DNA from: Candidatus Micrarchaeota archaeon
Lineage (GTDB): Archaea > Micrarchaeota > Micrarchaeia > Anstonellales > Bilamarchaeaceae
Assembly (NCBI GenBank): GCA_043827025.1
Contig: JBDRPL010000005.1
Location: forward strand, 35,569 to 99,568
Reading direction: 5' to 3'
Length of the DNA stretch: 64,000 bases
Shown here: piece after piece, positions 2,359 to 46,942 of the stretch
How the letters are laid out: each line of letters begins with the position of its first letter
Position numbering within the stretch: the first letter of the stretch is position 1
Program-made: the position numbers and the translations under genes
The notes under the pieces: generated by a model
Told to the model about the DNA's origin: nothing
The model's database searches: none
The model's input: the letters and a program-made list of their open reading frames with translations, nothing else

Positions 2359-3273
2359 TTACTTTATTTCCATTATCTCCTTTATCTCATCTTCTGTTTT
2401 CGACATGCAAACCCTTGATCTAAGTTTTGTCGCACCGGGTATTCCTCTGATGAAACAAAGTGCCTGTGCCTTTAGGTCTCCGACGCTTCGTTTAATCCCA
2501 AGCTCACGGACTGTTTTTAGATATTCATCAAATGCCTTCAATCTCATTTCCGGAGTAACCTCAAAATCCTTCTTTTGTTTGCACTGCTTGAAGATGAATG
2601 GGTTGCCTAATGCTGCACGGCCAATCATCACTGCATCGCAACCTGTTTCATCAAACATTCGTTTTGCACTCGAATAATCAACAACATCCCCATTCCCGAA
2701 AACAGGAATCGAAAGCGCATCTTTGATTTGCTTTATCATATTCCAATCAGCCTTTCCAGAATAAATTTGATCTAAGGTTCTTCCGTGAACTGCGAGTGCA
2801 GATGCTCCGCTTTTTTCAATCAGTTTCGCAATCTCAACAGCCTTGTCCTTTGTCTTTATTCCAAGTCTCATCTTCGCAGTTACTGGCTTTTTGATTGTTG
2901 AAACAATCTCGCCAATTATCTCATTGATTAGTTTTGGCTTGTCTAACAATGATGCCCCGCCGCCACCTCTCAATACTTTTGGAGCTGGACAACCCAGATT
3001 AATATCAATTACGTCCGCCTTTTTCTCTAGTATGTGGGAAGCCTTTGCCATTACGCTTGGCTTTGAGCCGAAAATCTGTATTCCGCAAGGCCTTTCCTCA
3101 TCTGAAATGAAAAGCATTTCCTGCGTCTTCTTATTTTCCCTTACAACTGCTTCAGCTGAAACGAATTCCGTTACAACATAATCAGCGCCGTATCTTCTGC
3201 ACATCCATCTAAATGCAGCATCAGTATGCGATGCCATTGGAGAAAGAATGTACTTGATTTTTGAGAAATCCAT
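2359..3273 (-). CDS. dus: tRNA-dihydrouridine synthase (Dus family, TIM-barrel flavoenzyme)
   Basis: 304 aa; Dus motifs IQIFGSKP, DINLGCPAPKV, KMRLG. Confidence 0.9.
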   Translation of the reverse strand: MDFSKIKYILSPMASHTDAAFRWMCRRYGADYVVTEFVSAEAVVRENKKTQEMLFISDEERPCGIQIFGSKPSVMAKASHILEKKADVIDINLGCPAPKVLRGGGGASLLDKPKLINEIIGEIVSTIKKPVTAKMRLGIKTKDKAVEIAKLIEKSGASALAVHGRTLDQIYSGKADWNMIKQIKDALSIPVFGNGDVVDYSSAKRMFDETGCDAVMIGRAALGNPFIFKQCKQKKDFEVTPEMRLKAFDEYLKTVRELGIKRSVGDLKAQALCFIRGIPGATKLRSRVCMSKTEDEIKEIMEIK

Positions 3274-3307
3274 CTTTTTACCTATAATTTTTATGAAGAT
3301 AAAATTT

Positions 3308-3516
3308 TGCGGCCATCGGGAATTGAACCCGATCTATCAGCTCTTACCTTTTAGGAAAAGGTAAGTCCAAAACCCGTTTGTTCAGGTTTTTTGTTTAGCC
3401 TTTTTTTCCTTTTTGATGAAACTTTTTAGGCATCCCGAAAAAGTTTCTTGGGAAGCTGAAGTCATACCGTTGTCCGTTTATAGATAAAGAATCTATAATC
3501 TGTAGACCATGGCCGC
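3308..3516 (-). tRNA. candidate tRNA-Gly(CCC) interrupted by two putative introns (about 30 nt after position 26 and about 107 nt in the anticodon loop)
   Basis: Reverse strand shows a perfect T-arm plus acceptor 3' strand (TCGGG-TTCAATT-CCCGA-TGGCCGC-A) at 3308-3335. The complementary acceptor 5' strand GCGGCCA lies about 200 nt upstream (3510-3516), followed by a TG-GTCT...AGAT D-arm resembling archaeal tRNA-Gly 5' ends. An internal segment TCAGC-TTCCCAA(G)...GCTGA gives an anticodon stem-loop with CCC. Exon boundaries were estimated by eye and the D-loop lacks GG. Confidence 0.45.
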
Positions 3517-3671
3517 ATATCATGTATATTCATCTTCTTGTTTTTCATTTGTTCGCTTGGGCCCCTTTGAGAGGCTATTCGTTCTATTTTACTTATAATG
3601 TACATAGAATTTTATATACTAATGTTGGGGAAAATAAGAAAAAGAATAAAAAGTTAGAGGTTGTTGCCAGG

Positions 3672-16784: not shown

Positions 16785-18695
16785 TTGATGAAACGTGGGC
16801 AGTCTAGTTTAGAGAGCCTTATTATGATTGGCTTTGGGTTGATCATATCGGTGGCATTTTTTTCCATGGCATTCATTTTCATTACTGATTCAATTGCAGC
16901 GCAGCAGGGAAAGGATGCGGCCAATCGGATAGGTAGCGAGATAGATTACGTTTATTCTTCTGGCGTAGGGACAGTGAGATATGTTGATGTTACCTTTCCT
17001 GCAGGCACCCAAAGTGTTCTTGTAGGTGATCATAGAGTCGTTGTCACAGTTCAGCTCTCCAGCGGCACTTCCCAATATTTTGCCAGTACTGATGCCTCTC
17101 TCGTGGGAATGATAGATTCTGAACCTGGACTTGAAAGGGTAAGGATTGAATATCTTGATTCTGAAAAACTCCTAGTTGGCACAGCATCGCTGAGCATGAC
17201 TCCTAAAAGATTGGATTTCGCACTACAGTCAACTGGTTTGGCATCTTCACAAGTGAATGCCTCAAACGAAGGCGCATCTTTACTGAACGGAATCGTTTCA
17301 ACGGTTGACACTTCTATATCTGATATGGTTTCCTTATCAGGAGTTCCAGCATCACTTGCTTCTGGTGCCTCCTCGCTTTTCAATGTCTTGGTCAGTGTTC
17401 CTGGTGGAAAAACACTTGGAATATATTCTGGCTTGGTAACATTGACATCAGCAAGTGGAGAAACAGACAGTACTCTAGTCGTGGTAAATATCCTTGGACA
17501 GACGCCTACATCATGTTCTATTTTACCAAGCATTGCAAATGTTTCTCAGGGCTCATCGCAGGAATTTACCATCTCTTGTCTTGATGCTAACTCATCCAGC
17601 GTATCTTGCCCTGTTTTCACATGGACAACAAATGCTGGCCAAGTGATTCCTCCAACTTCATCGACTTCAACTACGCTCATAGTTACTCAAACATCTGGCA
17701 CATATGTTCTTGCATCTGCAGGTTTCATTTGTTCTGCAACCTTGGTTTTCAATGGCACCACTCTAGATACGCAAGGTCCAATTGCAACAATTCTTTCTCT
17801 AAGCCCAGCATCTCCACAAACAGGAAATTCCATAACTGTTAATGCAACTGGTGATGATACAACAACTGGCAACAACAATATCCAATCCTGCGAAGCAAAG
17901 ATGGATGTTGCAGGTGCATGGAATCTGATGACTGCAGTTGATGGTTCTTACAGTTCGCCGATCGAAAATGTCACCTACACATTCAATCCGCAATCTAAGG
18001 GTTCGCATACTATTTATGTAAGATGCACTGACAGCATAGGCAACCTAGGAAATGAAACTTCAATCGCATTCAATGTTACAAAGCCAATAAAGCCAATTTT
18101 GTTTATTCAGGATGCGGCAGGTGCAACTGCAACTGAAACTTATTGGAAGAGTTGGATAAGTGGCCACACTTCAGCACAAGGATATAATTGGTCCTACGAT
18201 GTCAGTAATGTGGCGGATGTGACTGGTGGAGTGACTGATCCAACTGGCTACAAGATTGTTGTGATGGCGGAATATCCGAATGGAAACGCCCTACTTAATA
18301 GCAATTTAACAAATTACAAAACAGGTGGAGGATATGTGGTGTTATTAGCAAATGCACTTCAAAGAGGCCCACAGAATCTTGGGCTTACAGGATCAACAGG
18401 GAATCAACAAAGCAGAAATGAGATGGAGATCATTACGGCCCATAATATAACCACTGGTTACACCGTAGGCATCCAGTACACGATTCAAAACTCAAATCAA
18501 AATATTTATTACAACAACAATCTGGTGACAAATATAGGCGCTATGGAAACAGGAAGTACCAGAACCATGCTTGGGGAAAATTCTAGGATTCTTACCTATG
18601 GACCAACAAGGCCAGATATATTCAATGCCGATGGGAACACCTTTGCAACAAGAGTGCTTGACTGGGCGCTTGCTCAATCAACAATAGCAGGTTGA
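16785..18695 (+). CDS. large pilin-like surface protein / adhesin with class III signal peptide
   Basis: 636 aa; N-terminal MMKRGQSSLESLIMIGFGLIISVAFF; long Ser/Thr-rich extracellular region. Confidence 0.7.
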   Translation: MMKRGQSSLESLIMIGFGLIISVAFFSMAFIFITDSIAAQQGKDAANRIGSEIDYVYSSGVGTVRYVDVTFPAGTQSVLVGDHRVVVTVQLSSGTSQYFASTDASLVGMIDSEPGLERVRIEYLDSEKLLVGTASLSMTPKRLDFALQSTGLASSQVNASNEGASLLNGIVSTVDTSISDMVSLSGVPASLASGASSLFNVLVSVPGGKTLGIYSGLVTLTSASGETDSTLVVVNILGQTPTSCSILPSIANVSQGSSQEFTISCLDANSSSVSCPVFTWTTNAGQVIPPTSSTSTTLIVTQTSGTYVLASAGFICSATLVFNGTTLDTQGPIATILSLSPASPQTGNSITVNATGDDTTTGNNNIQSCEAKMDVAGAWNLMTAVDGSYSSPIENVTYTFNPQSKGSHTIYVRCTDSIGNLGNETSIAFNVTKPIKPILFIQDAAGATATETYWKSWISGHTSAQGYNWSYDVSNVADVTGGVTDPTGYKIVVMAEYPNGNALLNSNLTNYKTGGGYVVLLANALQRGPQNLGLTGSTGNQQSRNEMEIITAHNITTGYTVGIQYTIQNSNQNIYYNNNLVTNIGAMETGSTRTMLGENSRILTYGPTRPDIFNADGNTFATRVLDWALAQSTIAG

Positions 18696-18699
18696 TTTC

Positions 18700-19104
18700 A
18701 TGAAAGGGCAGGCAAGTATGGAATTCCTTATCTTCGTATGCATTGGCATGTTCTTTCTTCTAATTTCAGTTGTTTTCTATGCGGACAGAATCTTCGAGGT
18801 TTCTGAATTCCAGATTGTTTCTGAGATGAGAGGGATTTGCAACACCCTTTCAAGTTCAGCAAGCATGGTCTACACTGGGAAGGATGGAACAAACATCTCA
18901 CTTTCCTTTCCAGAAGAGATATACGGAAAACCCTATTTTATCAGAGTCAACAGCATTGACAAGACAGTTGCAATTGCAAGGGACAATTCCACCATGGTCG
19001 CCTGTTCATTTTTCGTTAATGCCTCCAATGGCCTAAACAACACGTTCGAAGCATCAAAATCACCTGTTCTGCAGAACAGGAAAGGGGTGGTTGTGTTTGG
19101 CTAA
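18700..19104 (+). CDS. pilin-like protein (class III signal peptide)
   Basis: 134 aa; MKGQASMEFLIFVCIGMFFLLISVVF. Confidence 0.65.
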   Translation: MKGQASMEFLIFVCIGMFFLLISVVFYADRIFEVSEFQIVSEMRGICNTLSSSASMVYTGKDGTNISLSFPEEIYGKPYFIRVNSIDKTVAIARDNSTMVACSFFVNASNGLNNTFEASKSPVLQNRKGVVVFG

Positions 19105-19555
19105 TTCACTTGATTTCATGTTTTCCACATTCATCTTTCTGATAGTGTTCATGTATTTGATACTTCTTTATTCGAATTACGTTGACAAGTATAATATCGA
19201 AGAAGTAAAGAGGGCTTTGGAAAGCGAGGCTCTGTCAGCATCAGAAATACTTGTTAAGACCCAAGGTGTTCCATACAATTGGGAAAAAAATACGAGCCAG
19301 ATATATTCGATTGGTTTGGCAAACAGCGAAAACGTGCTTGATGGTGATAAAGTATCATTCATCTCCAGCCTAAATTATGATTTGTTGAAAAATTATACTG
19401 GTTTTAGCAGGGATTATTACCTAAGATTGAAAACAATTTCAGGAACAACTGTTTTTGAGAAAGGCAATTCAACTGGTGAACTCTCGGTTTCCATAATACG
19501 CACTGTGATATATAACAATTCGATTGCGCGTCTGACGGTGAGGCTCTATGGTTAA
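19091..19555 (+). CDS. membrane-anchored minor pilin-like / hypothetical protein of the pilus locus
   Basis: 154 aa ORF; likely start at the internal Met (MFSTFIFLIVFMYLILLYS); single N-terminal TM helix. Confidence 0.45.
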   Translation: MCLANSLDFMFSTFIFLIVFMYLILLYSNYVDKYNIEEVKRALESEALSASEILVKTQGVPYNWEKNTSQIYSIGLANSENVLDGDKVSFISSLNYDLLKNYTGFSRDYYLRLKTISGTTVFEKGNSTGELSVSIIRTVIYNNSIARLTVRLYG

Positions 19556-19940
19556 TTTCACTGTTGATGCGCTTTTCGCAGTTCTCATTGCCATAATCTT
19601 CCTTTTTGCAATAGGAGGGTTCATATCGGAAACAGACAAATTTCAGGATTCCTATGTCATCAACGATATCCTCATAGTCCTTGACAAGCAAAACACACTA
19701 TCGACATTTGATTCTGCGACAATCAACAACTCTCTTGACATTCTTTTAGATGCAAATTATAGGTTAGAGATCACAACTTATAATGCGACGTCATTTGCTT
19801 TGCTAAGAAACATGGCGATTGGGCAGAATCTTCCGCAGATCAATGACTATGAGATAATGACTGCTGACAGGTATTTTGTGCAGTCTGCAGGAAATCGGAT
19901 ACAGAACCTGTCAAAGGCGAGGTTGTACGCATGGCGCTGA
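19548..19940 (+). CDS. pilin-like protein
   Basis: 130 aa; N-terminal hydrophobic helix VDALFAVLIAIIFLFAIGGFI. Confidence 0.55.
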   Translation: MVNFTVDALFAVLIAIIFLFAIGGFISETDKFQDSYVINDILIVLDKQNTLSTFDSATINNSLDILLDANYRLEITTYNATSFALLRNMAIGQNLPQINDYEIMTADRYFVQSAGNRIQNLSKARLYAWR

Positions 19941-20725
19941 CTTCAAACAATGGAACAACGAATGCCAAGAAAGGCATATTTCTTGTAGTATCAGTGTTTG
20001 TGATGATGCTTGCCTTGTTTGCCATGTCATCTCTTTTGTACAACATACAAACTCAGAAGAAGAATGCGATGTCAGGCACGCTTTTGCTTTCGACAATGAA
20101 TGAAAAGGCTTCAAACCTTGGTTACATAGCAGGAAAAATCTATTCTTCATCAGGAAGGTCAGTAAGCAGGTTTGGGGATTATGTTCAGATAATACAGGAT
20201 GATAATCTTTCTTCCAACTTGGACTATAACCTTAACCTAATAGTTTCATTGACTAATTTTACAAATTCGTCCCTTTCAATATCTGACAAGCGAAGGGTTT
20301 ATTTCGGTGAACAGCAGGCTCAATTCATTTACTTTTCTGTTCCCAATACCACGATAAACGTAAATACCACTTATCTTCATATAGGTGTGCATATGTCCTG
20401 CACCAACCTTTCATCTTCCTGGTCTTCAAGAAGTTCAGGGAATAGAAATGTCTCAGTATATGTTGACTGCACGAATTCCGGATCCTACGTCAGTGTTTTG
20501 GATAGCATACAATCAGGCATTTTGAATGTCACTGATAGTGGAGAAACTGTAATTTCAATAGACGTGAATGACAGGGTGCAAATCATGAAATACAGAGGCG
20601 CATATTTAAATATGATAACGAAGATGAATGAAACATCTCCTGCAGGCTTAAACGGTTCGATATCCGTTTCAAGAGGCAGTGCAAACAAGAATTCGATATT
20701 ATGGATGGATGGCTATGTTGGTTAG
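19931..20725 (+). CDS. pilin-like protein (class III signal peptide)
   Basis: 264 aa; NAKKGIFLVVSVFVMMLALFAMSSLLY; N-glycosylation sequon-rich (many N-x-S/T). Confidence 0.6.
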   Translation: MALTSNNGTTNAKKGIFLVVSVFVMMLALFAMSSLLYNIQTQKKNAMSGTLLLSTMNEKASNLGYIAGKIYSSSGRSVSRFGDYVQIIQDDNLSSNLDYNLNLIVSLTNFTNSSLSISDKRRVYFGEQQAQFIYFSVPNTTINVNTTYLHIGVHMSCTNLSSSWSSRSSGNRNVSVYVDCTNSGSYVSVLDSIQSGILNVTDSGETVISIDVNDRVQIMKYRGAYLNMITKMNETSPAGLNGSISVSRGSANKNSILWMDGYVG

Positions 20726-21359
20726 TGAATTGATGAGGAAGGAGTTTATTTCCATAGATGCAAATCAGAGCCTGCTTTACATCATAAAATTGTTTGCGAA
20801 ACATGGTGTACATGAGGCTCCTGTCATAAACAATAAGCTTTTCCTTGGCCTTGTTTCGGATAGGGAGATATCTCGTGCAATTGTCAGCAGGCCGTGGTTC
20901 AAGAAACCCTTCATGAAATCACGCGATGATTTTGAGGGGCTAAAGGCAATCGATGTTGTCAATAAATCTCCCCTTAAACTCAAGCCTGATGACTCTGTGA
21001 TTAATGCCATACTTGACATGGGTTCAAAACACATTAACATAATCCCTGTTCTTGATAAAGGAGTGCTTGTAGGCATAATTACTGGAAAGGATATAATCCA
21101 GTATCTTTCCCTAGATATTGCTAAACAAACAATTTCCAAAACAGATGACTCTACTGTCAAGTCGCTCATAGATTCCTTTCTTTTGATAATAAGGAACTCA
21201 AAGAAGATAAATGCGCAGAAGGTTGCGAAGATGCTTAAGATACGGGTGGAAAAGGCTGAAGAGATTGCAAAAGCGCTTGAATCGCACCATCTTATAGCGA
21301 TTGAATATTCTCTTTCAGGAAACATGATTTTGAGGGATAAAAATGCTGGACAAATATAA
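20679..21359 (+). CDS. CBS-domain pair protein with a C-terminal winged-HTH
   Basis: 226 aa (probable start at the internal MAMLVSELMRKEF); two CBS motifs (GVHEAPVINNKLFLGLVSDREI and INIIPVLDKGVLVGIITGKDIIQYL); C-terminal KVAKMLKIRVEKAEEIAKALESHHLIAIE. Confidence 0.7.
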   Translation: MQTRIRYYGWMAMLVSELMRKEFISIDANQSLLYIIKLFAKHGVHEAPVINNKLFLGLVSDREISRAIVSRPWFKKPFMKSRDDFEGLKAIDVVNKSPLKLKPDDSVINAILDMGSKHINIIPVLDKGVLVGIITGKDIIQYLSLDIAKQTISKTDDSTVKSLIDSFLLIIRNSKKINAQKVAKMLKIRVEKAEEIAKALESHHLIAIEYSLSGNMILRDKNAGQI

Positions 21360-22812
21360 CATTCGTGAAAACCATACTACTTTGCAGGTGACCATAGACA
21401 AGGACGAAACATCATACACTGACGTTTATAAGTTGTCAATCCCAAAAATATCCGAAGCAACTCTTGCTTATGTAGACAGCATAAAAACAGACCTTTTGAA
21501 AGACATCACCATCTCAAAGACGGAGATACTTGATGAATCCAAAATGGATGTGCTTAAACAATATTTACATTCAGAAGCAACAAAAAGGCAGAAATCTTTC
21601 ATGCCTGATGCTGATGAGGACACATTATGCTACGTTTCTTGTACAATCGTTAGGGATATGCTTGGGCTTGGGGAGATCGAGTTTCTTCTTGCAGATGAAA
21701 ATCTTGAGGAAATATGCGTGAATGGGGCGCAATTCGCAATCTGGGTATATCATAAAAAGCATGGCTGGCTGAAAACGAATCTCAAACCAAAAAGCGAGAT
21801 GGAAATACGGAATTATTCAGCATCCATAGGCCGAAGGGTGGGCAGGCAAATAACGGTCCAGGACCCTCTTTTAGACGCCCATTTGATCACAGGCGACCGT
21901 GTCAATGCGACCCTCTCGCCAATATCTGCATTTGGAAACACAATCACCATAAGAAAGTTTGCAAGAAAACCCTGGACTGTTGTGGACCTTATCAAGAATG
22001 GAACACTTGATTTTGAATCAACCGCATTTCTGTGGATGTGTCTTCAGTATGAATTGAATCTCATAGTTTCAGGGGGAACAGGCTCAGGAAAAACCTCGTT
22101 TCTCAATTCTCTTTCATCATTTTTCCCTCCAAACCAAAGAACCATAAGCATAGAGCAGACAAGGGAGATAGTTCTTCCAAAATACCTGCAATGGGTGCCA
22201 TTGGTTATAAGGGAAGCCACGGGCGAAGGGAAAGGCCAGGTCGGCATGCTTGACCTTATGATAAATTCATTAAGAATGAGGCCTGACCGCATCATAGTCG
22301 GCGAAGTCAGGTCGAGCGATGAGGCCCAGGTGCTATTCGAAGCAATGCATACTGGCCATTCTGTTTACGCAACAATGCATGCAGAAACTGCCTATGAATC
22401 TCTCAGAAGGCTGACAAATAAGCCAATTGATATTCCTTCGGTTGTGCTTGGCTCATTGCATCTTATTGCAGTGATGTATCGCGACAGGCGCTCTGGAATA
22501 CGCCGTCTTTTTGAGGTTGTAGAATTGCTTCCAACTGAAAGGAAAGAGGACATGTCCATACGTTTCCTCTATAAATGGAGGCCGTTTAAGGACACTATCT
22601 CCACAAGTGAAAACAGTGTAAGGTGTTTTGATACGATAAAGACATTCACAAGGATGGATGAGGATGCTATCAAAAGAGATCTTGCTGAAAAAGAGCAGAT
22701 CCTAAGGTGGCTTGTAAAGAATGATGTTAATGATGTTGATAAATTCGGTGCGCAGATAGGCGAGTATTATTTCGATAAGGAAGCGTTCCTCAAGAAATTG
22801 AAAATTAAATAG
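21343..22812 (+). CDS. type IV pilus / archaellum-type secretion ATPase (PilB/FlaI/TadA, VirB11-like)
   Basis: 489 aa; Walker A SGGTGSGKTSFLNSL, Walker B DRIIVGEVRSSDE, His-box HTGHSVYATMHAET. Confidence 0.9.
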   Translation: MLDKYNIRENHTTLQVTIDKDETSYTDVYKLSIPKISEATLAYVDSIKTDLLKDITISKTEILDESKMDVLKQYLHSEATKRQKSFMPDADEDTLCYVSCTIVRDMLGLGEIEFLLADENLEEICVNGAQFAIWVYHKKHGWLKTNLKPKSEMEIRNYSASIGRRVGRQITVQDPLLDAHLITGDRVNATLSPISAFGNTITIRKFARKPWTVVDLIKNGTLDFESTAFLWMCLQYELNLIVSGGTGSGKTSFLNSLSSFFPPNQRTISIEQTREIVLPKYLQWVPLVIREATGEGKGQVGMLDLMINSLRMRPDRIIVGEVRSSDEAQVLFEAMHTGHSVYATMHAETAYESLRRLTNKPIDIPSVVLGSLHLIAVMYRDRRSGIRRLFEVVELLPTERKEDMSIRFLYKWRPFKDTISTSENSVRCFDTIKTFTRMDEDAIKRDLAEKEQILRWLVKNDVNDVDKFGAQIGEYYFDKEAFLKKLKIK

Positions 22813-22821
22813 TGTAGGGTT

Positions 22822-23706
22822 ATGCAAATGAGGGTTCCGTTTATATTGCCTGACAGGCTTTCAGACATTCTTTCAAGGCCATTTAGCATTCCAATGGCAT
22901 ATCTAGCAAAGCTTTTCCCTGAAACTTCAGGTGCGCTTGAGCTTTCTGAAATAAAAATGAAGGACGTGGAATATCTGAGAAAGGCGCTGATAAATGCGTT
23001 TTTCGTAGGAATCATCCTTGGTTTTTCATTCTATCTCTTTGCTTTCAGGATGAAAGTTTCAGATTCAATCCTATTTTTTGGCTCGATATTCTTTGGTGTT
23101 GCATTGTTTTTTGGATATTTCTTTTATCTTGTAATATTTCCTAACTGGCTGATTGTGAAAAGATCTCAGGAAATAGACGAATACCTTATATTTGCAATGA
23201 GGCACATTTCCGTGCAGGTGAGTGCAGGTGTTCCTGTTTTTGATGCCATTCAGTCAGCATCAACAGGTTATGGGGCAGTTTCCAAAGAATTTAGAAAAAT
23301 AGTTACAAATGTCAACGGGGGCCAGGATTTTGCTGATGCCATAGATGAGAGTGCAGAAAAATCCCCATCAACATATTACAGGAGGATAATGTGGCAACTT
23401 TCCAACTCAACCCGGTCAGGCTATGCTATAAAAGACATACTAAAGGAATTGGTTGATTTCCTAACTGATGACCAAAAAACAAGGCTCAAGAAATTCGGTT
23501 CTGAGTTGAATGTCATTTCCATATTTTATCTTTCAACTGCAATCATACTTCCAACATTGGGGTTGATATTCGTAATAATCGCCTCTTCTTTCGGAGTAGT
23601 GAGTCCAAATACTGCAGTACTTTCGATGTTTGTATTTCTTATAACTCTTTTCAATTTGATATTTCTAGGGTTGATAAAGTCCAAGAGGCCAAGGGGGATA
23701 ATGTAA
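22822..23706 (+). CDS. pilus assembly membrane platform protein, TadB/FlaJ-like (first half)
   Basis: 294 aa; polytopic, T2SS-F-like domain; abuts the next gene (shared base at 23706). Confidence 0.75.
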   Translation: MQMRVPFILPDRLSDILSRPFSIPMAYLAKLFPETSGALELSEIKMKDVEYLRKALINAFFVGIILGFSFYLFAFRMKVSDSILFFGSIFFGVALFFGYFFYLVIFPNWLIVKRSQEIDEYLIFAMRHISVQVSAGVPVFDAIQSASTGYGAVSKEFRKIVTNVNGGQDFADAIDESAEKSPSTYYRRIMWQLSNSTRSGYAIKDILKELVDFLTDDQKTRLKKFGSELNVISIFYLSTAIILPTLGLIFVIIASSFGVVSPNTAVLSMFVFLITLFNLIFLGLIKSKRPRGIM

Positions 23707-24638
23707 TGATTGTCGAAAACATAGGAACACTTTTGAAATATTGCGACATCGATATCAATGCAAGGAAGTTTCTTCTTTTTGTGATCTGGTTCCCATTAGG
23801 CATTTCCTTAGTATTCCCTATCATGTTTAATGCAGACCTCTTGCTTGGTTTCGTACTTTTCATAGTTTCATCAGTATTTATAGTGCTAACTATTTTTGCT
23901 TACCTGTATATGATAAAGAACAAAAGGGCAGAGCTTGTAGAGGCTAACCTTCCGGATTATCTTTTGCTTGTTGCCAATAACATAAGGAGCGGGATACCTC
24001 CTGAAAAGGCGCTCATGATCTCAGCTAAAAAAGAGTTTGGCGTATTAAGCAAGGAAGTTATGGGTGTGATGAAGCTTTCCTTTTCAGGTAAGTCCTTGGA
24101 AGAGATTCTTCCGGAGATAAGTGCAAGGATAGACTCTGAGGTTCTCAGAAATTCCATAAACCTGATTGTCGAAGGGATGCAATCTGGAGGAGAATTGCCT
24201 TCGCTTCTTGAAAGGACGTCCTATGACCTAAGGAGCTTTGAATCAGTGAGAAAAGACATAAAATCAGTCATAACTACCTATGAATTGTTTATTGCAGCTG
24301 CAGCTTCATTTGCAGCGCCTTTGTTGCTTGCAACATCCACTTACATCGTTCAGATAATGACCTCTTTAAAGTCAAGGATTCCGGAGGACATTGCAGCAGG
24401 TTCTATTCCAGTTTTCAAGCAAAGCGAGATTGCAATAACCTCGGATGACCTTCTTATATTTTCATTTGTCTCCATCTTCATCACTGCATTTTTTGCATCT
24501 CTTGCAATTGGCTTGATGTCAAAAGGAAAAATAGTTGAAGGTGTAAAGAGCATTCCAATGCTTGTGGCTTTGGGGTTAGCACTTTTTTTCATATTCAGGC
24601 TGCTTCTCCAGGGGATGCTTGGGAATCTTATTGTCTAG
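23706..24638 (+). CDS. pilus assembly membrane platform protein, TadC/FlaJ-like (second half)
   Basis: 310 aa; polytopic T2SS-F-like domain; together with the previous ORF corresponds to the two domains of single-chain archaeal FlaJ. Confidence 0.75.
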   Translation: MIVENIGTLLKYCDIDINARKFLLFVIWFPLGISLVFPIMFNADLLLGFVLFIVSSVFIVLTIFAYLYMIKNKRAELVEANLPDYLLLVANNIRSGIPPEKALMISAKKEFGVLSKEVMGVMKLSFSGKSLEEILPEISARIDSEVLRNSINLIVEGMQSGGELPSLLERTSYDLRSFESVRKDIKSVITTYELFIAAAASFAAPLLLATSTYIVQIMTSLKSRIPEDIAAGSIPVFKQSEIAITSDDLLIFSFVSIFITAFFASLAIGLMSKGKIVEGVKSIPMLVALGLALFFIFRLLLQGMLGNLIV

Positions 24639-37233: not shown

Positions 37234-37611
37234 TTAGATAAGTTCAACATCAACCAAACCCTTGAAATCACGATCCTTTGTCCAAAGGATTAAACCATGA
37301 CACCTTGCAGATGTGTAAATTATGCAATCAATAAGGCTTATTTTTCCATTTTTTCTTCGTTCGTCAGCATATATCCTTCCGCTGGCTACGAATACGTCCT
37401 CGTCCAATTCAAGCATTACTGAAAGGGATCTAATAGTTTCAAGGTATTTCTCAGGAGATTCATTGTTCTTATGGCACCAGGCCGAAATCTCTGCAAGCGT
37501 AATCGGACAGGTATAAACGCCGACATTCTGATAAAGCAACTTCCTGATTTTATTACCTGTTTCCGTAGACGTAAGATACTCTATCCATGCAGACGTATCT
37601 AATAAAATCAT
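37234..37611 (-). CDS. vapC: PIN-domain toxin VapC
   Basis: 125 aa; MILLDTSAWIEYL acidic PIN motif; 1-nt overlap with the upstream antitoxin gene. Confidence 0.85.
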   Translation of the reverse strand: MILLDTSAWIEYLTSTETGNKIRKLLYQNVGVYTCPITLAEISAWCHKNNESPEKYLETIRSLSVMLELDEDVFVASGRIYADERRKNGKISLIDCIIYTSARCHGLILWTKDRDFKGLVDVELI

Positions 37612-37826
37612 CAGAATTCCCTTGTTTTCTTATCTCTCTCGAAAGGTTTTGTGAAATGTTTTGCCATTCCAAATCCAAGATCAATTTCCGCCATATCTCT
37701 ATGCTTAAGCAATACAACATCGATTTCGTCGCCGATTTTCAGGTTTTCCTGCTCTAGCCGTTCCTTTGGTATAAGTACACACGCCGAAGAACCAAGAGGC
37801 CTTATTTTAGATTTAAAGATGTCCAC
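37611..37826 (-). CDS. vapB: AbrB/SpoVT-type antitoxin VapB
   Basis: 71 aa; swapped-hairpin motif GSSACVLIPKERLEQENLKIGDEI. Confidence 0.8.
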   Translation of the reverse strand: MDIFKSKIRPLGSSACVLIPKERLEQENLKIGDEIDVVLLKHRDMAEIDLGFGMAKHFTKPFERDKKTREF

Positions 37827-37900
37827 ACAATCACCAATTATAATATATTATACGAAAGGTTTATAATTATAATTGATTATAATTTATCTGTCATTTTGTT

Positions 37901-38278
37901 TCATCTCTTTACCTCTTTCAATAGATCCTCATCAAAGCTAATCAATTCTGAGCCTGTCGTTCTTGCCAGATAAACTAATGACGCGTCAATAAAGCTCAGC
38001 TGATGCTTCTGTTTCTTGTAGATATCTATGATTTTACCAAAATCATCCTCTGAGACAAATATGATTCTAAAATTTTCAGCTTGTTGCACAGTTTCAAGGA
38101 ATGCTTTTGAAGCTTCCAATCCATTTTTATACAACAAAACCGTTGCTGTTTCCCCGATTACGTATTCTGAAAGCAGGAACTTCCTATCGACGTAATTCTT
38201 CATCATGGAAATTGCCTTCTCGTGATTGGAATCATCCTTATCGTAAAACGAAATTAAAAAAGAGCTGTCAAGGATCAT
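37901..38278 (-). CDS. vapC: PIN-domain toxin VapC (second copy)
   Basis: 125 aa; MILDSSFLISFYDKDD...; abuts the upstream small gene. Confidence 0.85.
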   Translation of the reverse strand: MILDSSFLISFYDKDDSNHEKAISMMKNYVDRKFLLSEYVIGETATVLLYKNGLEASKAFLETVQQAENFRIIFVSEDDFGKIIDIYKKQKHQLSFIDASLVYLARTTGSELISFDEDLLKEVKR

Positions 38279-38545
38279 CTAATCACGTTTCCCATAAAGG
38301 ATTTTGTCTATATTTTTACTCAAATCTTTCTCGCCAGATCTGAATGCAATCCTATCATAAGTATCAAAGAAGCTTTTGTACTTCTTCTTCGATTTCTGCT
38401 GATCCTTTTCCTTCAAATGCTCCTTGGCCAACCTAGCGATTTCATCCAAAGCTTCACCAGTATTCAGGTCGTGCAAATGTGCGTATTCATAAATGAATTC
38501 CTTTGTCTTCTCATCAACTTTTCGAACTGCGAATATGTCTGCCAT
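38279..38545 (-). CDS. putative antitoxin partner of VapC
   Basis: 88 aa; small acidic/basic protein immediately upstream of the PIN gene; fold not assigned. Confidence 0.6.
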   Translation of the reverse strand: MADIFAVRKVDEKTKEFIYEYAHLHDLNTGEALDEIARLAKEHLKEKDQQKSKKKYKSFFDTYDRIAFRSGEKDLSKNIDKILYGKRD

Positions 38546-40678: not shown

Positions 40679-42595
40679 ATGAACATTACTCAAAAGATAA
40701 TAAAGGAGCACTTAGTCGAAGGAGAAATGGTTGCTGGGAAGGAAATCGGAATCAAGATAGACCAGACTCTAACCCAGGATGCGACGGGAACAATGGCATA
40801 CCTGGAATTTGAGGCATTGAATATTCCAAGAGCGAAAACCGAATTGTCAGTGAGTTACGTTGACCATAATATGCTTCAAACCGATTTCAAGAATCCGGAT
40901 GATCATTTATACTTACAGTCAATTGCTGCAAAATATGGCATTCTATTTTCAAGGCCTGGGAATGGCATATGCCATCAAGTCCATTTAGAGAGATTCGCAA
41001 GGCCTGGAAGAACATTGATTGGAAGTGATTCCCATACGCCTACTGCAGGAGGTATTGGTTCATTATCTATAGGTGCAGGAGGATTAGATGTTGCACTTGC
41101 AATGGGTGGAGATACCTTTTATTTGAATATGCCTAAAGTAGTTGGCGTAAAACTAACTGGAAAATTAGGTCCATGGACATCTGCAAAGGATGTGGTTCTG
41201 GAGTTATTGAAAAGAGTCACTGTAAAAGGAGGAAAGGGCAAGGTTTACGAGTATTTTGGCCCGGGAACAAAAACATTGTCTGTTGCAGAACGAGCTACAA
41301 TCACAAACATGGGAACAGAAACAGGGGCAACAAGCTCAATTTTCCCTTCTGATGAAATCACAAAAGAGTTCCTGAAATCCCAAAAAAGAGAAAATCAGTG
41401 GATAGAATTGAAGGCGGATTCAGAACAATATGATGAAATAATTGAAATCGATTTGTCTTCAATAGAGCCCTTGATTGCCAAACCACATTCACCAGGAGAG
41501 GTTGTGCCTGTGAAAAAGGTAGAGGGAACAAGAATAAGGCAGGTTATTGTGGGATCATGTACTAATTCATCCTACAAGGATTTGATGATTTTTGCAAAGG
41601 CAATGAAAGGAAAGACAGTTCATCCTGAGGTAAGCCTTTGTGTTTTACCAGGTTCGAGACAGGTCTATCAGGAAATTGCAAGAAATGGCGCATTGGCAGA
41701 CCTTATCAAAGCAGGTGCAAGAATATTGGAATCAGCCTGTGGCCCCTGCATAGGCATGGGACAAGCACCACCATCTGAGAGTGTCACAATAAGGACATTC
41801 AACAGGAATTTCGAAGGAAGATGCGGGACAAAAGATGCAAAGGCATATCTATGTTCTCCGGAAGTTGCAGCAGCATGTGCAATATATGGAGAAATTGCAG
41901 ACCCACGGAAATTAGGTGTATGCCCTGAAATAGAGCCTTCAGCAGGAATTGTTGATGATTCTATGATAATCCTGCCTACAAAGGACGGATCTTCAGTTAA
42001 AATAGTAAAAGGCCCGAACATAAAACCATTGCCTGAGATGAAACCCTTGGAGGACAATATTTCAAAAGAGGTTTTGTTGAAGGTCGGGGACAATATTACA
42101 ACAGACCATATAATGCCTGCGGGCGCACAGATATTGCCATTGCGCTCTAACATCCCGGCAATTTCTGAATTCGTTTACAATTCCGTTGACAAGGACTTCG
42201 TAAAAAGAGCAAAGGAAAAACAAGGAGGAATGATTATCGGCGGCGAAAACTATGGCCAGGGATCTTCAAGGGAACATGCTGCAATTGCTCCTTTATACTT
42301 AGGAATAAAGGCAAAGATAGTGAAATCCTATGCAAGGATACATCTTGCAAATTTAGTTAATTGGGGAATACTGCCTTTGGAATTTGCCGATCCGTCAGAT
42401 TATGACAAGATTGAACAGGGAGACAAATTGGAACTTATGGATATTAAGGAATCATTAAAGAATGGAAAGAACATAAAAGTAAAAAACACAACAAAATCAT
42501 TCGAGTTTGAGGCAAAATATAATTTATCTAAAAGAGACGTTGCAACACTTGTTGCTGGCGGTTCAATTAATTATGTAAAACAAAGACATGGATAA
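40679..42595 (+). CDS. acn: aconitate hydratase (short mitochondrial-type aconitase-family protein)
   Basis: 638 aa; GICHQVHLERFARPGRTLIGSDSHTPTAGGIGSLSIGAGGLDVA matches the aconitase Fe-S ligand region; Cys ligands in GSCTNSSY and ACGPCIGMGQ; swivel domain at the C-terminus. Confidence 0.9.
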   Translation: MNITQKIIKEHLVEGEMVAGKEIGIKIDQTLTQDATGTMAYLEFEALNIPRAKTELSVSYVDHNMLQTDFKNPDDHLYLQSIAAKYGILFSRPGNGICHQVHLERFARPGRTLIGSDSHTPTAGGIGSLSIGAGGLDVALAMGGDTFYLNMPKVVGVKLTGKLGPWTSAKDVVLELLKRVTVKGGKGKVYEYFGPGTKTLSVAERATITNMGTETGATSSIFPSDEITKEFLKSQKRENQWIELKADSEQYDEIIEIDLSSIEPLIAKPHSPGEVVPVKKVEGTRIRQVIVGSCTNSSYKDLMIFAKAMKGKTVHPEVSLCVLPGSRQVYQEIARNGALADLIKAGARILESACGPCIGMGQAPPSESVTIRTFNRNFEGRCGTKDAKAYLCSPEVAAACAIYGEIADPRKLGVCPEIEPSAGIVDDSMIILPTKDGSSVKIVKGPNIKPLPEMKPLEDNISKEVLLKVGDNITTDHIMPAGAQILPLRSNIPAISEFVYNSVDKDFVKRAKEKQGGMIIGGENYGQGSSREHAAIAPLYLGIKAKIVKSYARIHLANLVNWGILPLEFADPSDYDKIEQGDKLELMDIKESLKNGKNIKVKNTTKSFEFEAKYNLSKRDVATLVAGGSINYVKQRHG

Positions 42596-42601
42596 TACTA
42601 G

Positions 42602-43849
42602 GTGAAAAATATGGTGATAAGTGGAGAAAAAATAAAGATGGAGAATGGAAAACTAGTGGTACCCAACATACCTTATATCCCATACATCAAAGGGGACGGA
42701 GTTGGAGAAGACATCTGGCCAGTAGTCCAAAGAATCATTGATGCAGCAGTTGCAAAGGCATATGGAAACACTAACAGGGTGCCGAACAAAGCAATATTTT
42801 GGCTTGAAGCTCCTGCCGGAGATAAGGCATATAAAGAAACCGGCGAATATCTTCCCCAAAACACAGTAGATATGATAAGAGAATACCTAGTTGCAATAAA
42901 GGGTCCTTTAACTACTCCAGTTGGTGGGGGCCACAGATCATTGAATGTAACTATGCGCCAAGTGTTAGACCTATATTGTTGTGTCAGACCTGTCAAATGG
43001 TTCGAGGGGGTTCCAAATCCAATGAAAAATCCTGAGAAATTGAATGTGGTGATTTTCAGGGAAAATACAGAAGATGTATATGCGGGAATCGAATTCAAGG
43101 AAGGCAGCGATGAAGTAAAAAAAGTGATTGACCTGATGTCCAACATGGGCAAGAAGATAAGGCCAGATTCAGGCATCGGAATAAAACCGATTTCAATAAC
43201 TGGAACCAAAAGATTGGTGGAAGCTGCTATTGATTATGCAATAAAATATAGGAAAACTAGAGTGACTTTGATGCACAAGGGAAACATAATGAAATTTACA
43301 GAAGGCGCATTCAGGGAATGGGGTTATGCGGTTGCAAAGGAAAAGTTTCCTGATAAGGTCATAACAGAACAGGAAGTCACGGATAACCACGGAGGAAAAA
43401 TCCCTGAGGGAAAAATAATGATAAATGACAGAATTGCAGACTCAATGTTCCAGCAGGTTTTATTAAGGCCTGATGAATATGAGGTAATTGCCACAACCAA
43501 TCTGAATGGGGATTACATAAGCGATGCATGTGCTGCACAGGTTGGCGGTTTGGGAATTGCTCCTGGCGCAAACATCAATTATAAGACCGGACATGCATTG
43601 TTTGAAGCAACACATGGCACTGCACCAAAGCATGCAGGGCAGGACAAGGTGAATCCAGGCTCTTTGCTTCTTTCAGCAGTCATGATGCTTGATTATATGG
43701 GATGGGAAGAGGCTGCCAAAATGATTGAATCAGCATTTGAAAAGACAATCAACCAAAAGATCGTGACCTACGATTTTGCAAGGCAGATGGAAGGCGCAAC
43801 TGAAGTCAAATGTTCTGAATTTGGCGCGAAAATAATTGAAAATCTTTGA
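42602..43849 (+). CDS. icd: isocitrate dehydrogenase (NADP-type)
   Basis: 415 aa; signature [27 protein letters not shown]. Confidence 0.9.
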
Positions 43850-43881
43850 ATGGGAAACAATGAATAACGAGGGACAATCAC

Positions 43882-45114
43882 ATGGCAAGAAGAAAAATCC
43901 GCGAATACGATGGGCGAAGGCTTTTTGGCGAATACTTTGGAATTCCTAGCGAATCGATCCTAGTTGATTCTTCTACGGATATTGAAGGATTGGGCAAAAC
44001 TCACCCCTGGCTGAATTCAAAAAAACTGGTGGTGAAGCCAGATGTGTTGATGGGGAAAAAAGGCAAGCACAACCTCATTCTCCTAAATGCGGATTTTTCT
44101 GCTGCCAAAGGCTTCATAAAAGAGCACCTCAATAAAGAAATGAAAATCGGGAACATTTCAGGAGTTCTGACACACTTCATAATCCAGCCATTTGTCCCTC
44201 ATCAAAATGAATATTTCGTTTCCATCATGAGCGGAAGGGATGCTGACAAGATATACATCTCTGAAAAAGGAGGGGTTGACATTGAAGAGAACTGGGAAAC
44301 AGTCAAACACATAGATGTTCCTATTGCCGGCCCCTTTCCCAAAGAAGAATTGGCAAAATGCCTTTCTTCATTTGGAAATGAAAAAGATGCAACAACGAAA
44401 TTCATAGAAAAACTTTACCAGTTCTTTGCAGAATATGATTTTTCATACTTGGAGCTAAACCCGTTTTGTTTTGTGGATGGAAAGGCAATTCCATTGGGAT
44501 TTGTTGGAGAGGTGGATGATTGTGCAGAATATAAGGATTATAAGAGATGGGGCAATTTGGCATTTCCCCAGTCCTTTGGCAAGAAACTGACGAAAGAGGA
44601 AGAGTTCATAAAAGACCTGGATTCCAAGACAGGGGCTTCCCTGAAACTTACAATTTTGAATCCAAAGGGCAAGATATGGCCCATGGTCGCAGGAGGAGGC
44701 GCATCAGTTATCTATGCAGACACAATTGTAGATCTTGGATGCGGCAATGAGCTTGCCATATATGGGGAATATTCCGGGGACCCCAATGAAGAAGAAACCT
44801 ATCAGTATGCCAAGACTGTTTTGGACCTGATGACAAGGGAATCAAGAAAAGACGGCAAGGTTCTGCTGATAGGAGGCGGAGTTGCAAATTTCACAGATGT
44901 TGCAAAAACATTCAAAGGCATCATCCGAGCATTGAAGGAATATAAGGAAAAACTAAAGAAAAATAATGTCAAGATATACATCAGAAGGGGCGGACCAAAT
45001 TATGAGGTTGGCCTGGAACTTATGAGAAAACTAGGAGGGGAATTAGGAGTACCTATGGAGGTTTATGGCCCAGAAACCCACATGACAAAGATTGTCGCGT
45101 TAGCTTTGAAGTGA
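43882..45114 (+). CDS. aclB: ATP-citrate lyase, subunit B (ATP-grasp/N-terminal part of ACLY)
   Basis: 410 aa; long blocks colinear with the human ACLY N-terminus: HPWL...LVVKPD, EPFVPH, ASLKLTILNPKGKIWPMVAGGGASVIYADTIVDLG...NELA(I/N)YGEYSG, RRGGPNYEVGL. Confidence 0.9.
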   Translation: MARRKIREYDGRRLFGEYFGIPSESILVDSSTDIEGLGKTHPWLNSKKLVVKPDVLMGKKGKHNLILLNADFSAAKGFIKEHLNKEMKIGNISGVLTHFIIQPFVPHQNEYFVSIMSGRDADKIYISEKGGVDIEENWETVKHIDVPIAGPFPKEELAKCLSSFGNEKDATTKFIEKLYQFFAEYDFSYLELNPFCFVDGKAIPLGFVGEVDDCAEYKDYKRWGNLAFPQSFGKKLTKEEEFIKDLDSKTGASLKLTILNPKGKIWPMVAGGGASVIYADTIVDLGCGNELAIYGEYSGDPNEEETYQYAKTVLDLMTRESRKDGKVLLIGGGVANFTDVAKTFKGIIRALKEYKEKLKKNNVKIYIRRGGPNYEVGLELMRKLGGELGVPMEVYGPETHMTKIVALALK

Positions 45115-45118
45115 TACT

Positions 45119-46942
45119 ATGACCGATTTATTCACAAACAAAACACAGGCATTCATATACAATTTTAAGGCAAACCCTGTGCAGAGAATGCTTGATTTTG
45201 ATTACATCTGCAGAAGAAAAACCCCTAGCATTGCAGGGCTTATCAATCCAGGAGGATCAGGTTTTCACAAAGCATTTTTTGGTGCAACTGAAATCATGCT
45301 TCCCATATATTCAAGCATTGATGCTGCAACAAAAGCTCATCCAAATGCAGATGTGATGGTTAATTTTGCTTCGTTCAGGAGCGCCTACGCATCATCATTG
45401 GAAGCGCTTAACAATACTTCCATAAAGACCGTTGCCATCATAGCCGAGGGGATTCCTGAAAGACTGACAAAGGAATTGATTGCAATAGCAAACAAAAAGA
45501 AGAAATGGATAATCGGGCCTGCAACAGTTGGAGGATTGGCAGCAGGCAAATTCAGGATAGGGAATACTGCAGGCACCATTGACAACATAATCAAATGCAA
45601 GGCTTACAGACCCGGCTCAGTTGGCTTTGTTTCAAAATCAGGAGGTCTTTCCAATGAGATGTTCAATGTCATTGCAAGAACTACTGATGGAATTTATGAA
45701 GGAATTGCAATTGGCGGAGATGCATGCCCAGGCTCCAAATTAATAGACCATATCCTAAGGTATGAAAATAATCCTGCAATCAAAATGATTGTTGCTCTTG
45801 GAGAACTTGGAGGAAATGAGGAATATGAGATCGCCAATGCAGTGAAAGCGAAAAAAATAACCAAACCAATTGTCATGTGGGTTGCAGGAACCTGTGCAAA
45901 TGTTTTCCCAGGGGAAGTGCAGTTCGGCCACGCAGGCGCAAAAAGCGGTAAACAAGAAAATTCAGCAGCTGCCAAGAACAAGGCATTGAAAGAAGCTGGA
46001 GTCATCGTGCCAAATTCATACGAGGATTTTGACCAAAGGATAAAGGAAACGTTTGACAGGTTGAAGAAAGATGGCAAAATAAAGGAAATTGAAGAGCCCG
46101 AGGTTCCAAAATTACCTATGGACTATTTAGAAGCACTGAAAAAAGGAGTGATACGTAAACAAACCAATTTCATCTGCTCAATTTCAGACGATAGGGGGGA
46201 TGAGCCCTATTATGCAGGCATTCCAATGAGCAAAATGATTGAGGATGACTATTCTGTTGGCGAAATAATTTCCTTATTGTGGTTTAAGAAAAGATTGCCA
46301 AAATATGCCACGAAATTCATTGAAACTGTGATGATAATTGCAGCAGATCACGGGCCATGTGTATCAGGTGCCCACAATACAATAATTACTGCAAGGGCAG
46401 GGAAGGACCTGATATCCTCATTATGCTCTGGCTTATTGACAATCGGCCCAAGATTCGGAGGTGCAATTGATGATGCTGCAAGATATTTCAAGCATGCAGC
46501 TGATTCTGGAATGGCTCCTGATGAATTTGTCAGTGAAATGAAGAAAAAGGGCATTAATATCCCTGGAATTGGCCATAGGATAAAATCTGCAAAAAACCCT
46601 GACAAGAGGGTCGAAATACTAAAGGCGTATGCAAAGAAAAACTTCCCCCAGACAAAATACCTTGACTATGCTTTGTCAGTTGAAAAAGAGACGCTGAAAA
46701 AGGCAGACAACCTTATTTTAAATGTGGATGGCTGTATAGGCATTTTATTCGTGGATTTGATGGATGGTTGCGAGGCATTTTCAAAGGAAGAACTTAATTC
46801 AATTGTTGATATAGGCTACCTGAACGGTTTGTTCATCTTGGCAAGATCAATAGGGTTAATGGGCCATGTATTTGACCAAAAGAGGCTGAAACAGACACTC
46901 TACAGGCATCCATGGGATGATGTGTTGTTTATAGACCGTTAA
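45119..46942 (+). CDS. aclA: ATP-citrate lyase, subunit A (CoA-binding and citryl-CoA lyase part)
   Basis: 607 aa; colinear with the ACLY C-terminal half: QRMLDFDYICRR, catalytic-His region GHAGA, IAADHGPCVSGAHNTIITARAGKDLISSL, LYRHPWDDV. Confidence 0.9.
   Translation: MTDLFTNKTQAFIYNFKANPVQRMLDFDYICRRKTPSIAGLINPGGSGFHKAFFGATEIMLPIYSSIDAATKAHPNADVMVNFASFRSAYASSLEALNNTSIKTVAIIAEGIPERLTKELIAIANKKKKWIIGPATVGGLAAGKFRIGNTAGTIDNIIKCKAYRPGSVGFVSKSGGLSNEMFNVIARTTDGIYEGIAIGGDACPGSKLIDHILRYENNPAIKMIVALGELGGNEEYEIANAVKAKKITKPIVMWVAGTCANVFPGEVQFGHAGAKSGKQENSAAAKNKALKEAGVIVPNSYEDFDQRIKETFDRLKKDGKIKEIEEPEVPKLPMDYLEALKKGVIRKQTNFICSISDDRGDEPYYAGIPMSKMIEDDYSVGEIISLLWFKKRLPKYATKFIETVMIIAADHGPCVSGAHNTIITARAGKDLISSLCSGLLTIGPRFGGAIDDAARYFKHAADSGMAPDEFVSEMKKKGINIPGIGHRIKSAKNPDKRVEILKAYAKKNFPQTKYLDYALSVEKETLKKADNLILNVDGCIGILFVDLMDGCEAFSKEELNSIVDIGYLNGLFILARSIGLMGHVFDQKRLKQTLYRHPWDDVLFIDR

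Follow-up and report, generated by a model that had tools for sequence, protein, structure and literature searches.

Anatomy and detection of the gene

The 64-kb stretch of contig JBDRPL010000005.1 analysed here (hereafter the window) comes from a Candidatus Micrarchaeota archaeon, and on its reverse strand, at 3308-3516, lies a locus that is very probably a functional tRNA-Gly(CCC) gene interrupted by two introns. Our analysis established the anatomy of the gene, the fit of its exons to a cloverleaf, a junction geometry conserved among homologs and purifying selection on the exons, and it is on these sequence comparisons that the assignment is based. The parts of the locus are as follows (loci fetched for comparison are referred to by L numbers):

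3308..3516, reverse strand: whole candidate pre-tRNA-Gly(CCC) gene, 209 nt, with three colinear exons and two introns; same architecture at L091:2530-2793
3502..3516, reverse strand: exon 1, GCGGCCATGGTCTAC, 15 nt; acceptor 5' strand, U8, G9, D-stem 5' strand GTCT, A14 and C15
3516-3510, reverse strand: 5' acceptor strand GCGGCCA, perfectly complementary to the 3' acceptor strand
3470..3501, reverse strand: intron 1, AGATTATAGATTCTTTATCTATAAACGGACAA, 32 nt; interrupts the D-loop at 15/16
3449..3469, reverse strand: exon 2, CGGTATGACTTCAGCTTCCCA, 21 nt; remainder of the D-loop, D-stem 3' strand, U26, anticodon stem 5' strand and anticodon loop to A37
3459-3448, reverse strand: TCAGC-TTCCCAA, with its partner GCTGA at 3341-3337
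3452-3450, reverse strand: anticodon CCC, in exon 2
3343..3448, reverse strand: intron 2, 106 nt, at the canonical 37/38 position
3308..3342, reverse strand: exon 3, AGCTGATAGATCGGGTTCAATTCCCGATGGCCGCA, 35 nt; A38, anticodon stem 3' strand, 4-nt variable loop, T-arm, acceptor 3' strand and A73, with no CCA encoded at its end
3332-3316, reverse strand: T-arm, read as TCGGG-TTCAATT-CCCGA
3315-3309, reverse strand: 3' acceptor strand TGGCCGC, with the discriminator A at 3308
3301..3304, reverse strand: TTTT run three bases past the discriminator, a possible archaeal oligo-T terminator

When both strands of the window were scanned for T-arms (a 5-bp T-stem with G53-C61 and a TTCRANN loop), three sites only were recovered, namely the annotated tRNA-Arg(GCG) and tRNA-Leu(GAG) genes and the present locus. 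The T-arm and 3' acceptor strand lie where an earlier note on this DNA had placed them. That note had also claimed that the sole complementary 5' acceptor strand stood about 200 nt away; indeed, exactly one fully complementary 7-mer occurs within 500 nt upstream of the T-arm, at a distance of 208 nt, and the short exon that the note described between the two, with its anticodon-stem partner next to the T-arm, was likewise recovered.

No tRNA was called at the locus by default ARAGORN or by an Rfam scan at gathering thresholds, and a permissive Rfam scan of 3200-3650 also returned no tRNA match. The position of intron 1 in the D-loop accounts for this silence, because ARAGORN finds nothing as long as intron 1 is retained. 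Once intron 1 alone was removed, its intron search (option -i) returned exactly the 106-nt intron at 37/38, and once both introns were removed in silico the resulting 71 nt were called tRNA-Gly(ccc) at default stringency. The central proposal of the earlier note, a tRNA-Gly(CCC) split by two introns over about 210 nt, is thus upheld, as are its estimate of about 107 nt for the anticodon-loop intron and its expectation of an uncultured archaeal lineage in which annotation misses the gene; the intron search that it recommended works on the partly spliced sequence and fails on the intact one. A low-stringency ARAGORN run on the unspliced locus proposed a tRNA-Gly(tcc) that has a long variable arm and, at 32/33, an intron of 127 nt, a call that we rejected because it appears only below the default threshold and because the homologs back the exon model given above.

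The acceptor (7/7), anticodon (5/5) and T (5/5) stems of the spliced product are perfect, and it carries A73, C2-G71, G3-C70, C35 and C36, the recognised glycine identity set of archaeal tRNA-Gly. When it was aligned with 17 tRNA-Gly sequences of relatives, gaps were confined to the D-loop, and 98.1% of the cloverleaf cells in the 18-sequence alignment held standard pairs, compared with 26-45% when the partners were slid. The unspliced sequence is itself strongly structured: a 226-nt region folds at -70.4 kcal/mol (z = -5.8, with 0/200 shuffles as good), and the acceptor, anticodon and T stems are formed in this fold.

These observations bear on a reading in which tRNA-like fragments lie side by side by chance, for example the 3' remnant of an integrating element next to an unrelated complementary 7-mer. 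It is true that 3' tRNA-Gly fragments without a 5' partner exist elsewhere (L018, L038, L049), yet here none of the three exons is missing and they follow one another colinearly and in register; the spliced product is accepted by default ARAGORN, with the cloverleaf pairing just given, and the entire arrangement is kept in L091. We therefore regard chance juxtaposition as refuted and its probability as negligible. The locus is also not a split or permuted tRNA of the kind known from Nanoarchaeum, Caldivirga and Thermofilum, whose pieces come from separate loci or stand in permuted order and are joined in trans or via a circular intermediate, since its exons follow one another in order along a single strand and span only 209 nt. 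Group I introns possess a self-splicing core (P1-P9) and usually exceed 200 nt; the two introns here measure 32 and 106 nt, and no Rfam group I match was obtained at gathering or permissive thresholds.

Conservation in an orthologous locus

The ortholog that allowed selection to be assessed lies on L091, a 3-kb metagenome contig whose SPFH protein is 90% identical to that encoded upstream of the tRNA in the window, and which shares the gene order FtsZ-Spt5-SPFH-tRNA. A search for synteny through this SPFH gene yielded no tRNA counterpart in L092-L094, L091 being the only one. Its tRNA occupies 2530-2793, with both introns at the same positions as in the window gene. Exon identity is 70/71 overall (14/15 in exon 1, 21/21 in exon 2 and 35/35 in exon 3), and the sole change, C5 to T in L091, retains pairing with G68. 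The introns have fared differently: intron 1 measures 36 nt in L091 vs 32 nt in the window, and intron 2 measures 157 nt vs 106 nt, with a new loop on its first hairpin (P1, below), 12 nt deleted and 54 nt inserted.

The exons have diverged by 1.4%, far less than the third codon positions of the adjacent gene (31.8%; Fisher p = 1.8e-9) and less also than the aligned intron columns (11.5%, that is 14/122, plus 87 gap columns; Fisher p = 0.011). At the level of sequence, this contrast indicates a gene that is probably functional, with structurally constrained introns, rather than a pseudogene, and the conservation of the exons contradicts the fragmented or pseudo tRNA that the earlier note had offered as its alternative.

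The intermediate divergence of the introns could also be read as a sign that intron 2 harbours a functional RNA in its own right, for instance a box C/D guide of the kind found in pre-tRNA-Trp, which would explain its conserved blocks. Indeed, the aligned intron columns diverge less than the neutral sites, four blocks are identical in L091, and intron-borne C/D RNA is known in tRNA-Trp (PMC4090602). Against this, intron 2 contains no RUGAUGA C box and its only CUGA falls in the segment deleted in L091, a permissive Rfam scan gave no credible match on the tRNA strand, and the conserved blocks can all be explained as helix strands beside the splice sites. We consider a hosted RNA very improbable.

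Downstream of the tRNA in L091 (2794-2900), synteny with the window stops exactly at the tRNA 3' end, and about 60 nt further on the last ~9 bases of the tRNA recur together with its trailer (CGGCCGCATAAATAATTAT vs TGGCCGCATAATTTAT). This repeat could be an att-like remnant of integration at the tRNA.

Splice junctions and related introns

The earlier note had put the non-canonical intron after about position 26. It is placed instead at 15/16 by two relatives, L025 and the intronless L064, and by the junction geometry of homologs. In the window gene, intronic GGAC (3475-3472) pairs 4/4 with exon GTCT (3507-3504) as a central helix; the bulges, of 3 nt each, are AC|A and AA|C (vertical bars mark the predicted cuts), and the inner helix consists of a G-C pair, an A·A mismatch and then an 8-bp hairpin at 3498-3478. 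With its 4/4 central helix, 5' bulge and inner helix, this is a relaxed bulge-helix-bulge motif of the HBh' type, and shuffled versions of intron 1 satisfy the same geometry in 0.7% of trials.

A D-loop intron sits at the same place in six other tRNA-Gly genes (L014, L024, L025, L026, L069 and L091). Five of these were obtained from pattern scans, namely L014 (identical in sequence to L045), L024, L025, L026 and L069 (a Micrarchaeota bin), and their introns all finish in ...GG[AG]C A[ATG]|CGGT. Across the seven genes the geometry is constant, with a 4/4 central helix GTCT/GG[AG]C and bulges A[GC]|N and A[ATG]|C, and the inner-helix sequences are unrelated. The exact junction is fixed by comparison: L064 (Bilamarchaeaceae) reads GTCTAG-CGGTTAGGAT and L025 reads GTCTAG-[16 nt]-CGGTTAGGAT, and the L025 junction so defined lies just where a rule of cutting two bases into each bulge predicts. 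A variant of the window gene with a 9-nt D-loop, in which the 3' splice site is two bases earlier, also passes ARAGORN; we rejected it because the cut would fall at the end of a helix instead of within a bulge and because it conflicts with the L025/L064 junction.

Intron 2 occupies the canonical position, with the anticodon stem TCAGC/GCTGA (5 bp) as outer helix, bulges CA|A and AG|A of 3 nt each, and TTCC/GGTA as central helix. Four other tRNA-Gly(CCC) genes (L050, L052, L057 and L085) have 37/38 introns of this design, with the central helix TTCC/GGAA, bulges CA|N and A[CGT]|A, and again the anticodon stem outside. Two elements within the intron need to be named:

3418..3447, reverse strand: hairpin P1, GAAACTTTTT-loop-AAAAAGTTTC, 10-bp, beginning one base past the 5' splice site
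3354..3375, reverse strand: 22-nt block, GGGTTTTGGACTTACCTTTTCC, within the intron 2 branch and identical in L091

We take P1 as the putative inner helix (h') of the intron 2 splicing motif. Its pair probabilities are about 0.9, no second such site occurs in the window (0 expected by chance), L091 preserves it with a compensatory change at one pair (U-A to G-C), and strict motifs in L050, L004 and L075 use the same helix as inner helix. In L004 and L050 the GA(A/G)ACT...AGTTTC helix runs straight into the 3' strand of the central helix, which makes the motif strict, whereas in the window structured RNA intervenes. Part of this branch is the 22-nt block, whose CCTTTT pairs with an upstream AAAAGG in folds of L091 and with AGGAAA in the window. 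An alternative pairing of CTTACCTTTT with AAAAGGTAAG (3365-3343) gives a 10-bp hairpin with a probability of about 0.37. In both orthologs, an anticodon arm constrained to adopt the motif was less stable than the minimum-energy fold by 5.8 kcal/mol, and the local register alone was altered. The motif of intron 2 is therefore classed, on the strength of these predicted folds, as a putative relaxed, branched bulge-helix-bulge. The expectation that both junctions would fold into bulge-helix-bulge motifs holds in relaxed form for intron 1; for intron 2 the picture is mixed, with outer helix and both bulges in place, a central helix that is 3/4 paired and an inner helix set off by a 69-nt branch. 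Two other approaches to the junctions were set aside: RNAalifold applied to the two orthologous anticodon arms was informative for P1 alone, MAFFT having misplaced the 54-nt insertion, and a blind listing of all bulge-helix-bulge-like pairs in the region was too noisy to be used alone.

The branched geometry raises the question of whether intron 2 might be composite and excised stepwise, first an internal intron of 86 nt (CA|A ... GGAC TT|A) and then the remaining 20 nt. A motif for the first step exists: its central helix TTCC/GGAC is 3/4 paired and its inner helix GAAACTT/GGGTTTT has 7 bp. In addition, L091 has the block GGGTTTTGGACTTACC unchanged, and sequential removal of closely spaced introns has been documented (PMC8450103); in some Thermoproteales tRNAs the motif of one intron can form only after another intron has been excised. 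Yet an exhaustive path search in both orthologs found no motif for the second step (central helix >=3/4, outer >=3 bp, inner >=2 bp). The pair probability of GAAACTT/GGGTTTT in the ensemble is about 0 because P1, with its high probability and compensatory change, competes for the same bases, and the conformer required lies 10.8 kcal/mol above the minimum-energy fold. Two-step removal is in our view unlikely, and we retain intron 2 as a single 106-nt intron.

Several observations weigh against the assignment of a functional, spliced gene. Neither motif is a strict 3-4-3 bulge-helix-bulge: the outer helix is absent for the D-loop intron in all seven genes, and the central helix of intron 2 has only 3/4 pairs, with one U·U mismatch, and is separated from P1 by ~69 nt of structured RNA, a non-contiguous geometry that recurs in L091. 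In the unconstrained ensemble the TTCC/GGTA pairs have a probability of <=0.07, and the two bases flanking the 3' splice site of intron 2 are mostly paired. The D-stem of the spliced product carries a U13·U22 mismatch. There is no recognisable archaeal promoter at the usual distance upstream, no promoter element is shared among the three tRNAs of the window or with L091, and the upstream sequence is not conserved with L091. The Pfam families of EndA, RtcB and archease had no match among the 70 open reading frames (ORFs) of the window that were scanned. A tRNA-Gly(CCC) is, moreover, dispensable in principle if a UCC isoacceptor is present.

Some of these points (the flawed and interrupted motif of intron 2, the D-stem mismatch and the unclear promoter), together with the silence of default tools, would suit a decaying or pseudo tRNA, that is, a once functional gene whose splice motifs have relaxed and taken up insertions, which is no longer processed, and whose GGG codons are read by another isoacceptor. 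Set against this are the near-identity of the exons to those of L091, with the one changed pair kept, while neighbouring third positions have drifted and the introns are full of indels, and the perfect acceptor, anticodon and T stems. The same central-helix mismatch is retained in both orthologs, and the central helix of L004 is likewise 3/4. As to the D-stem, pair 13-22 is non-standard in 4/18 of the aligned tRNA-Gly, the window gene included and intronless genes among them, and L012 also has U·U there (judged by eye from the sequence). We consider a decaying gene decidedly unlikely and retain the functional two-intron tRNA-Gly(CCC).

The relatives cited above come largely from a T-arm plus acceptor pattern scan, which gave 59 loci in a metagenome collection and 28 in a genome collection, many of them tRNA-Gly genes of Micrarchaeota, Woesearchaeota, Aenigmatarchaeota and Thermoplasmata, a large share of which have introns; the genome from which the window comes was not represented among the loci of the genome collection. 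Within the 664 kb of fetched loci, a sample biased to tRNA-Gly, 6/8 distinct occurrences of the GAAACT...AGTTTC helix fall within tRNA-Gly introns. One of these genes, at L075:2183-2329 on the reverse strand (Candidatus Micrarchaeota CAYHPR010000033.1), is a tRNA-Gly(GCC) with a 74-nt strict-motif intron at 21/22 that contains two GAAACT...AGTTTC hairpins; the first 40 nt of this intron resemble the start of intron 2 in the window, which suggests that the two may be related introns at different positions. It is conceivable, though we would stop short of calling it probable, that intron 2 belongs to a family of related, possibly mobile bulge-helix-bulge introns in tRNA-Gly genes of Micrarchaeota and other DPANN archaea that grows by hairpin modules. 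The proposed hallmark is the inner helix A|R-GA(A/G)ACT...AGTTTC; members would lie at 37/38 in CCC and TCC genes and at 21/22 in the GCC gene of L075, and their lengths (47 nt in L050, 106 nt in the window and 157 nt in L091) would reflect modules added between the inner and central helices. If this were true, intron transposition, so far described in Thermoproteales, would extend to DPANN archaea, and the splicing endonuclease would tolerate branched motifs.

Long introns were also seen in other tRNA-Gly genes. At L086:1387-1664 on the forward strand (Candidatus Micrarchaeia JBMFNT010000013.1) lies a tRNA-Gly(GCC) of 278 nt whose anticodon-loop intron of ~205 nt is made up of ~2.5 tandem copies of a ~78-nt unit, and the genes of L089 (Candidatus Asbonarchaeaceae, 213 nt) and L077 (Woesearchaeota, 169 nt) have anticodon-loop introns of ~140 and ~97 nt, respectively, by subtraction. 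The L089 intron also holds a GAAACTGC...GCAGTTTC hairpin. At L018, L038 (of identical sequence) and L049, a tRNA-Gly-like T-arm and 3' acceptor strand lack a complementary 5' acceptor in the 460 nt upstream; possible explanations are 3' fragments, halves of split tRNAs and genes whose introns are very long.

Genomic setting, proposed processing and known systems

The gene immediately downstream of the tRNA encodes a DusB-type tRNA dihydrouridine synthase (Dus; 2359-3273, reverse strand), so that such an enzyme begins 35 nt from a tRNA with an interrupted D-loop. The Dus protein is identical to one in a 'Candidatus Micrarchaeota archaeon' genome bin and its nearest relatives are Micrarchaeota, which identifies the host as a member of this DPANN lineage. 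The window has a G+C content of 39%, and the neighbouring genes are archaeal, including FtsZ, Spt5/NusG, ribosomal proteins S13, S4 and S11, RpoD and an archaeal-type AdoMet synthetase. The adjacency of tRNA and Dus is not kept in relatives: no tRNA lies upstream of Dus in L001-L003, and the gene downstream of the tRNA in L091 is not Dus. In L001, an archease gene adjoins Dus. Beyond Micrarchaeota, a single lower-ranked match of the Dus protein bears a bacterial name, Oscillospiraceae, which hints at a bacterial origin of the gene.

Other parts of the window deserve brief mention. Genes for aconitase, isocitrate dehydrogenase, a two-gene ATP-citrate-lyase-like pair and a homolog of the RuBisCO large subunit lie at 40679-46942 (forward strand) and 53018-54313 (reverse strand), a set of central-carbon genes that stands out in a DPANN genome. 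At 37234-38545 (reverse strand) there are two PIN-domain genes, one followed by an 88-aa ORF without a Pfam match; these are probable toxin-antitoxin pairs. Five consecutive ORFs (636, 134, 154, 130 and 264 aa) at 16785-20725 (forward strand) have no Pfam match and immediately precede a CBS-domain gene, a type IV pilus-like ATPase and two T2SSF genes (20679-24638).

For the tRNA gene, we propose the following course of maturation. The 209-nt primary transcript would fold so that each exon-intron junction lies within a bulge-helix-bulge-like motif; at intron 1, the 5' strand of the D-stem, GTCT, would pair with the intronic decoy GGAC. The archaeal tRNA splicing endonuclease would then cut each 3-nt bulge after its second base (AC|A and AA|C at intron 1, CA|A and AG|A at intron 2), and an RtcB-type ligase would join the three exons into the 71-nt tRNA, to which CCA would be added later. 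Transcription, cleavage at these exact bonds, ligation and the type of enzyme are what we infer from the architecture of the gene. By analogy, the relaxed motifs of both introns would need an endonuclease of broad specificity like the epsilon2 enzyme of ARMAN-2.

The gene adds a glycine isoacceptor to the tRNA set of this genome that default ARAGORN and Rfam miss, and it bears on estimates of tRNA complement and completeness for DPANN genome bins. Together with L091 it makes up a natural substrate pair, combining a D-loop motif that lacks an outer helix with a branched 37/38 motif, which could be used to probe the limits of relaxed-specificity archaeal splicing endonucleases. The shared GAAACT/AGTTTC helix, in turn, hints at how such introns spread and grow.

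How does this gene compare with known systems? In the strict hBHBh' intron at 37/38 (Marck and Grosjean 2003, via PMC8450103), as described there, the anticodon stem is likewise the outer helix, the bulges are of 3 nt with cleavage after the second bulge base, and the central helix is built from bases 32-35 and the 3' end of the intron. Unlike that motif, the window gene has a U·U mismatch in its central helix, and its inner helix is a ~69-nt branch away, so that the 5' splice site sits in a multi-branch junction and not in a simple bulge. The multi-intron tRNAs of Thermoproteales (Sugahara et al. 2008; Fujishima et al. 2010, via PMC4033280) are similar in that, by that account, they carry up to three bulge-helix-bulge introns (<=3) per gene, at non-canonical positions and with relaxed motifs, and in that similar introns recur across tRNAs and positions. 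They differ in belonging to another phylum, Crenarchaeota, with an (alpha-beta)2 endonuclease, and the element shared here is the GAAACT...AGTTTC inner helix, which has so far been seen in DPANN-type tRNA-Gly alone owing to the sampling of loci.

The closest parallel is Candidatus Micrarchaeum acidiphilum ARMAN-2, of the same phylum, for which 56% of tRNA genes are reported as disrupted, by canonical and non-canonical introns and sometimes by two (Fujishima et al. 2011, PMC3239211). According to that report, its epsilon2 endonuclease cuts strict and relaxed motifs in vitro, the latter (hBH or bulge-helix-loop) serving as substrates as we propose here, and its genes too were overlooked by standard finders. 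Intron-disrupted tRNA genes in Micrarchaeota are therefore already known (PMC3239211). There are also differences: examples described in that report lie at 37/38, 53/54 and 59/60, none of these being a D-loop 15/16 intron, and the introns of its splicing substrates are of 13-25 nt (PMC3239211), in contrast to the 106 nt of intron 2 (157 in L091) with its branched interior. What is modestly new, then, is a conserved D-loop 15/16 intron of tRNA-Gly, an unusually long and branched 37/38 intron and a recurring GAAACT...AGTTTC helix. Current understanding is left unchanged by these findings, which extend the behaviour already known for the tRNA genes of Micrarchaeota.

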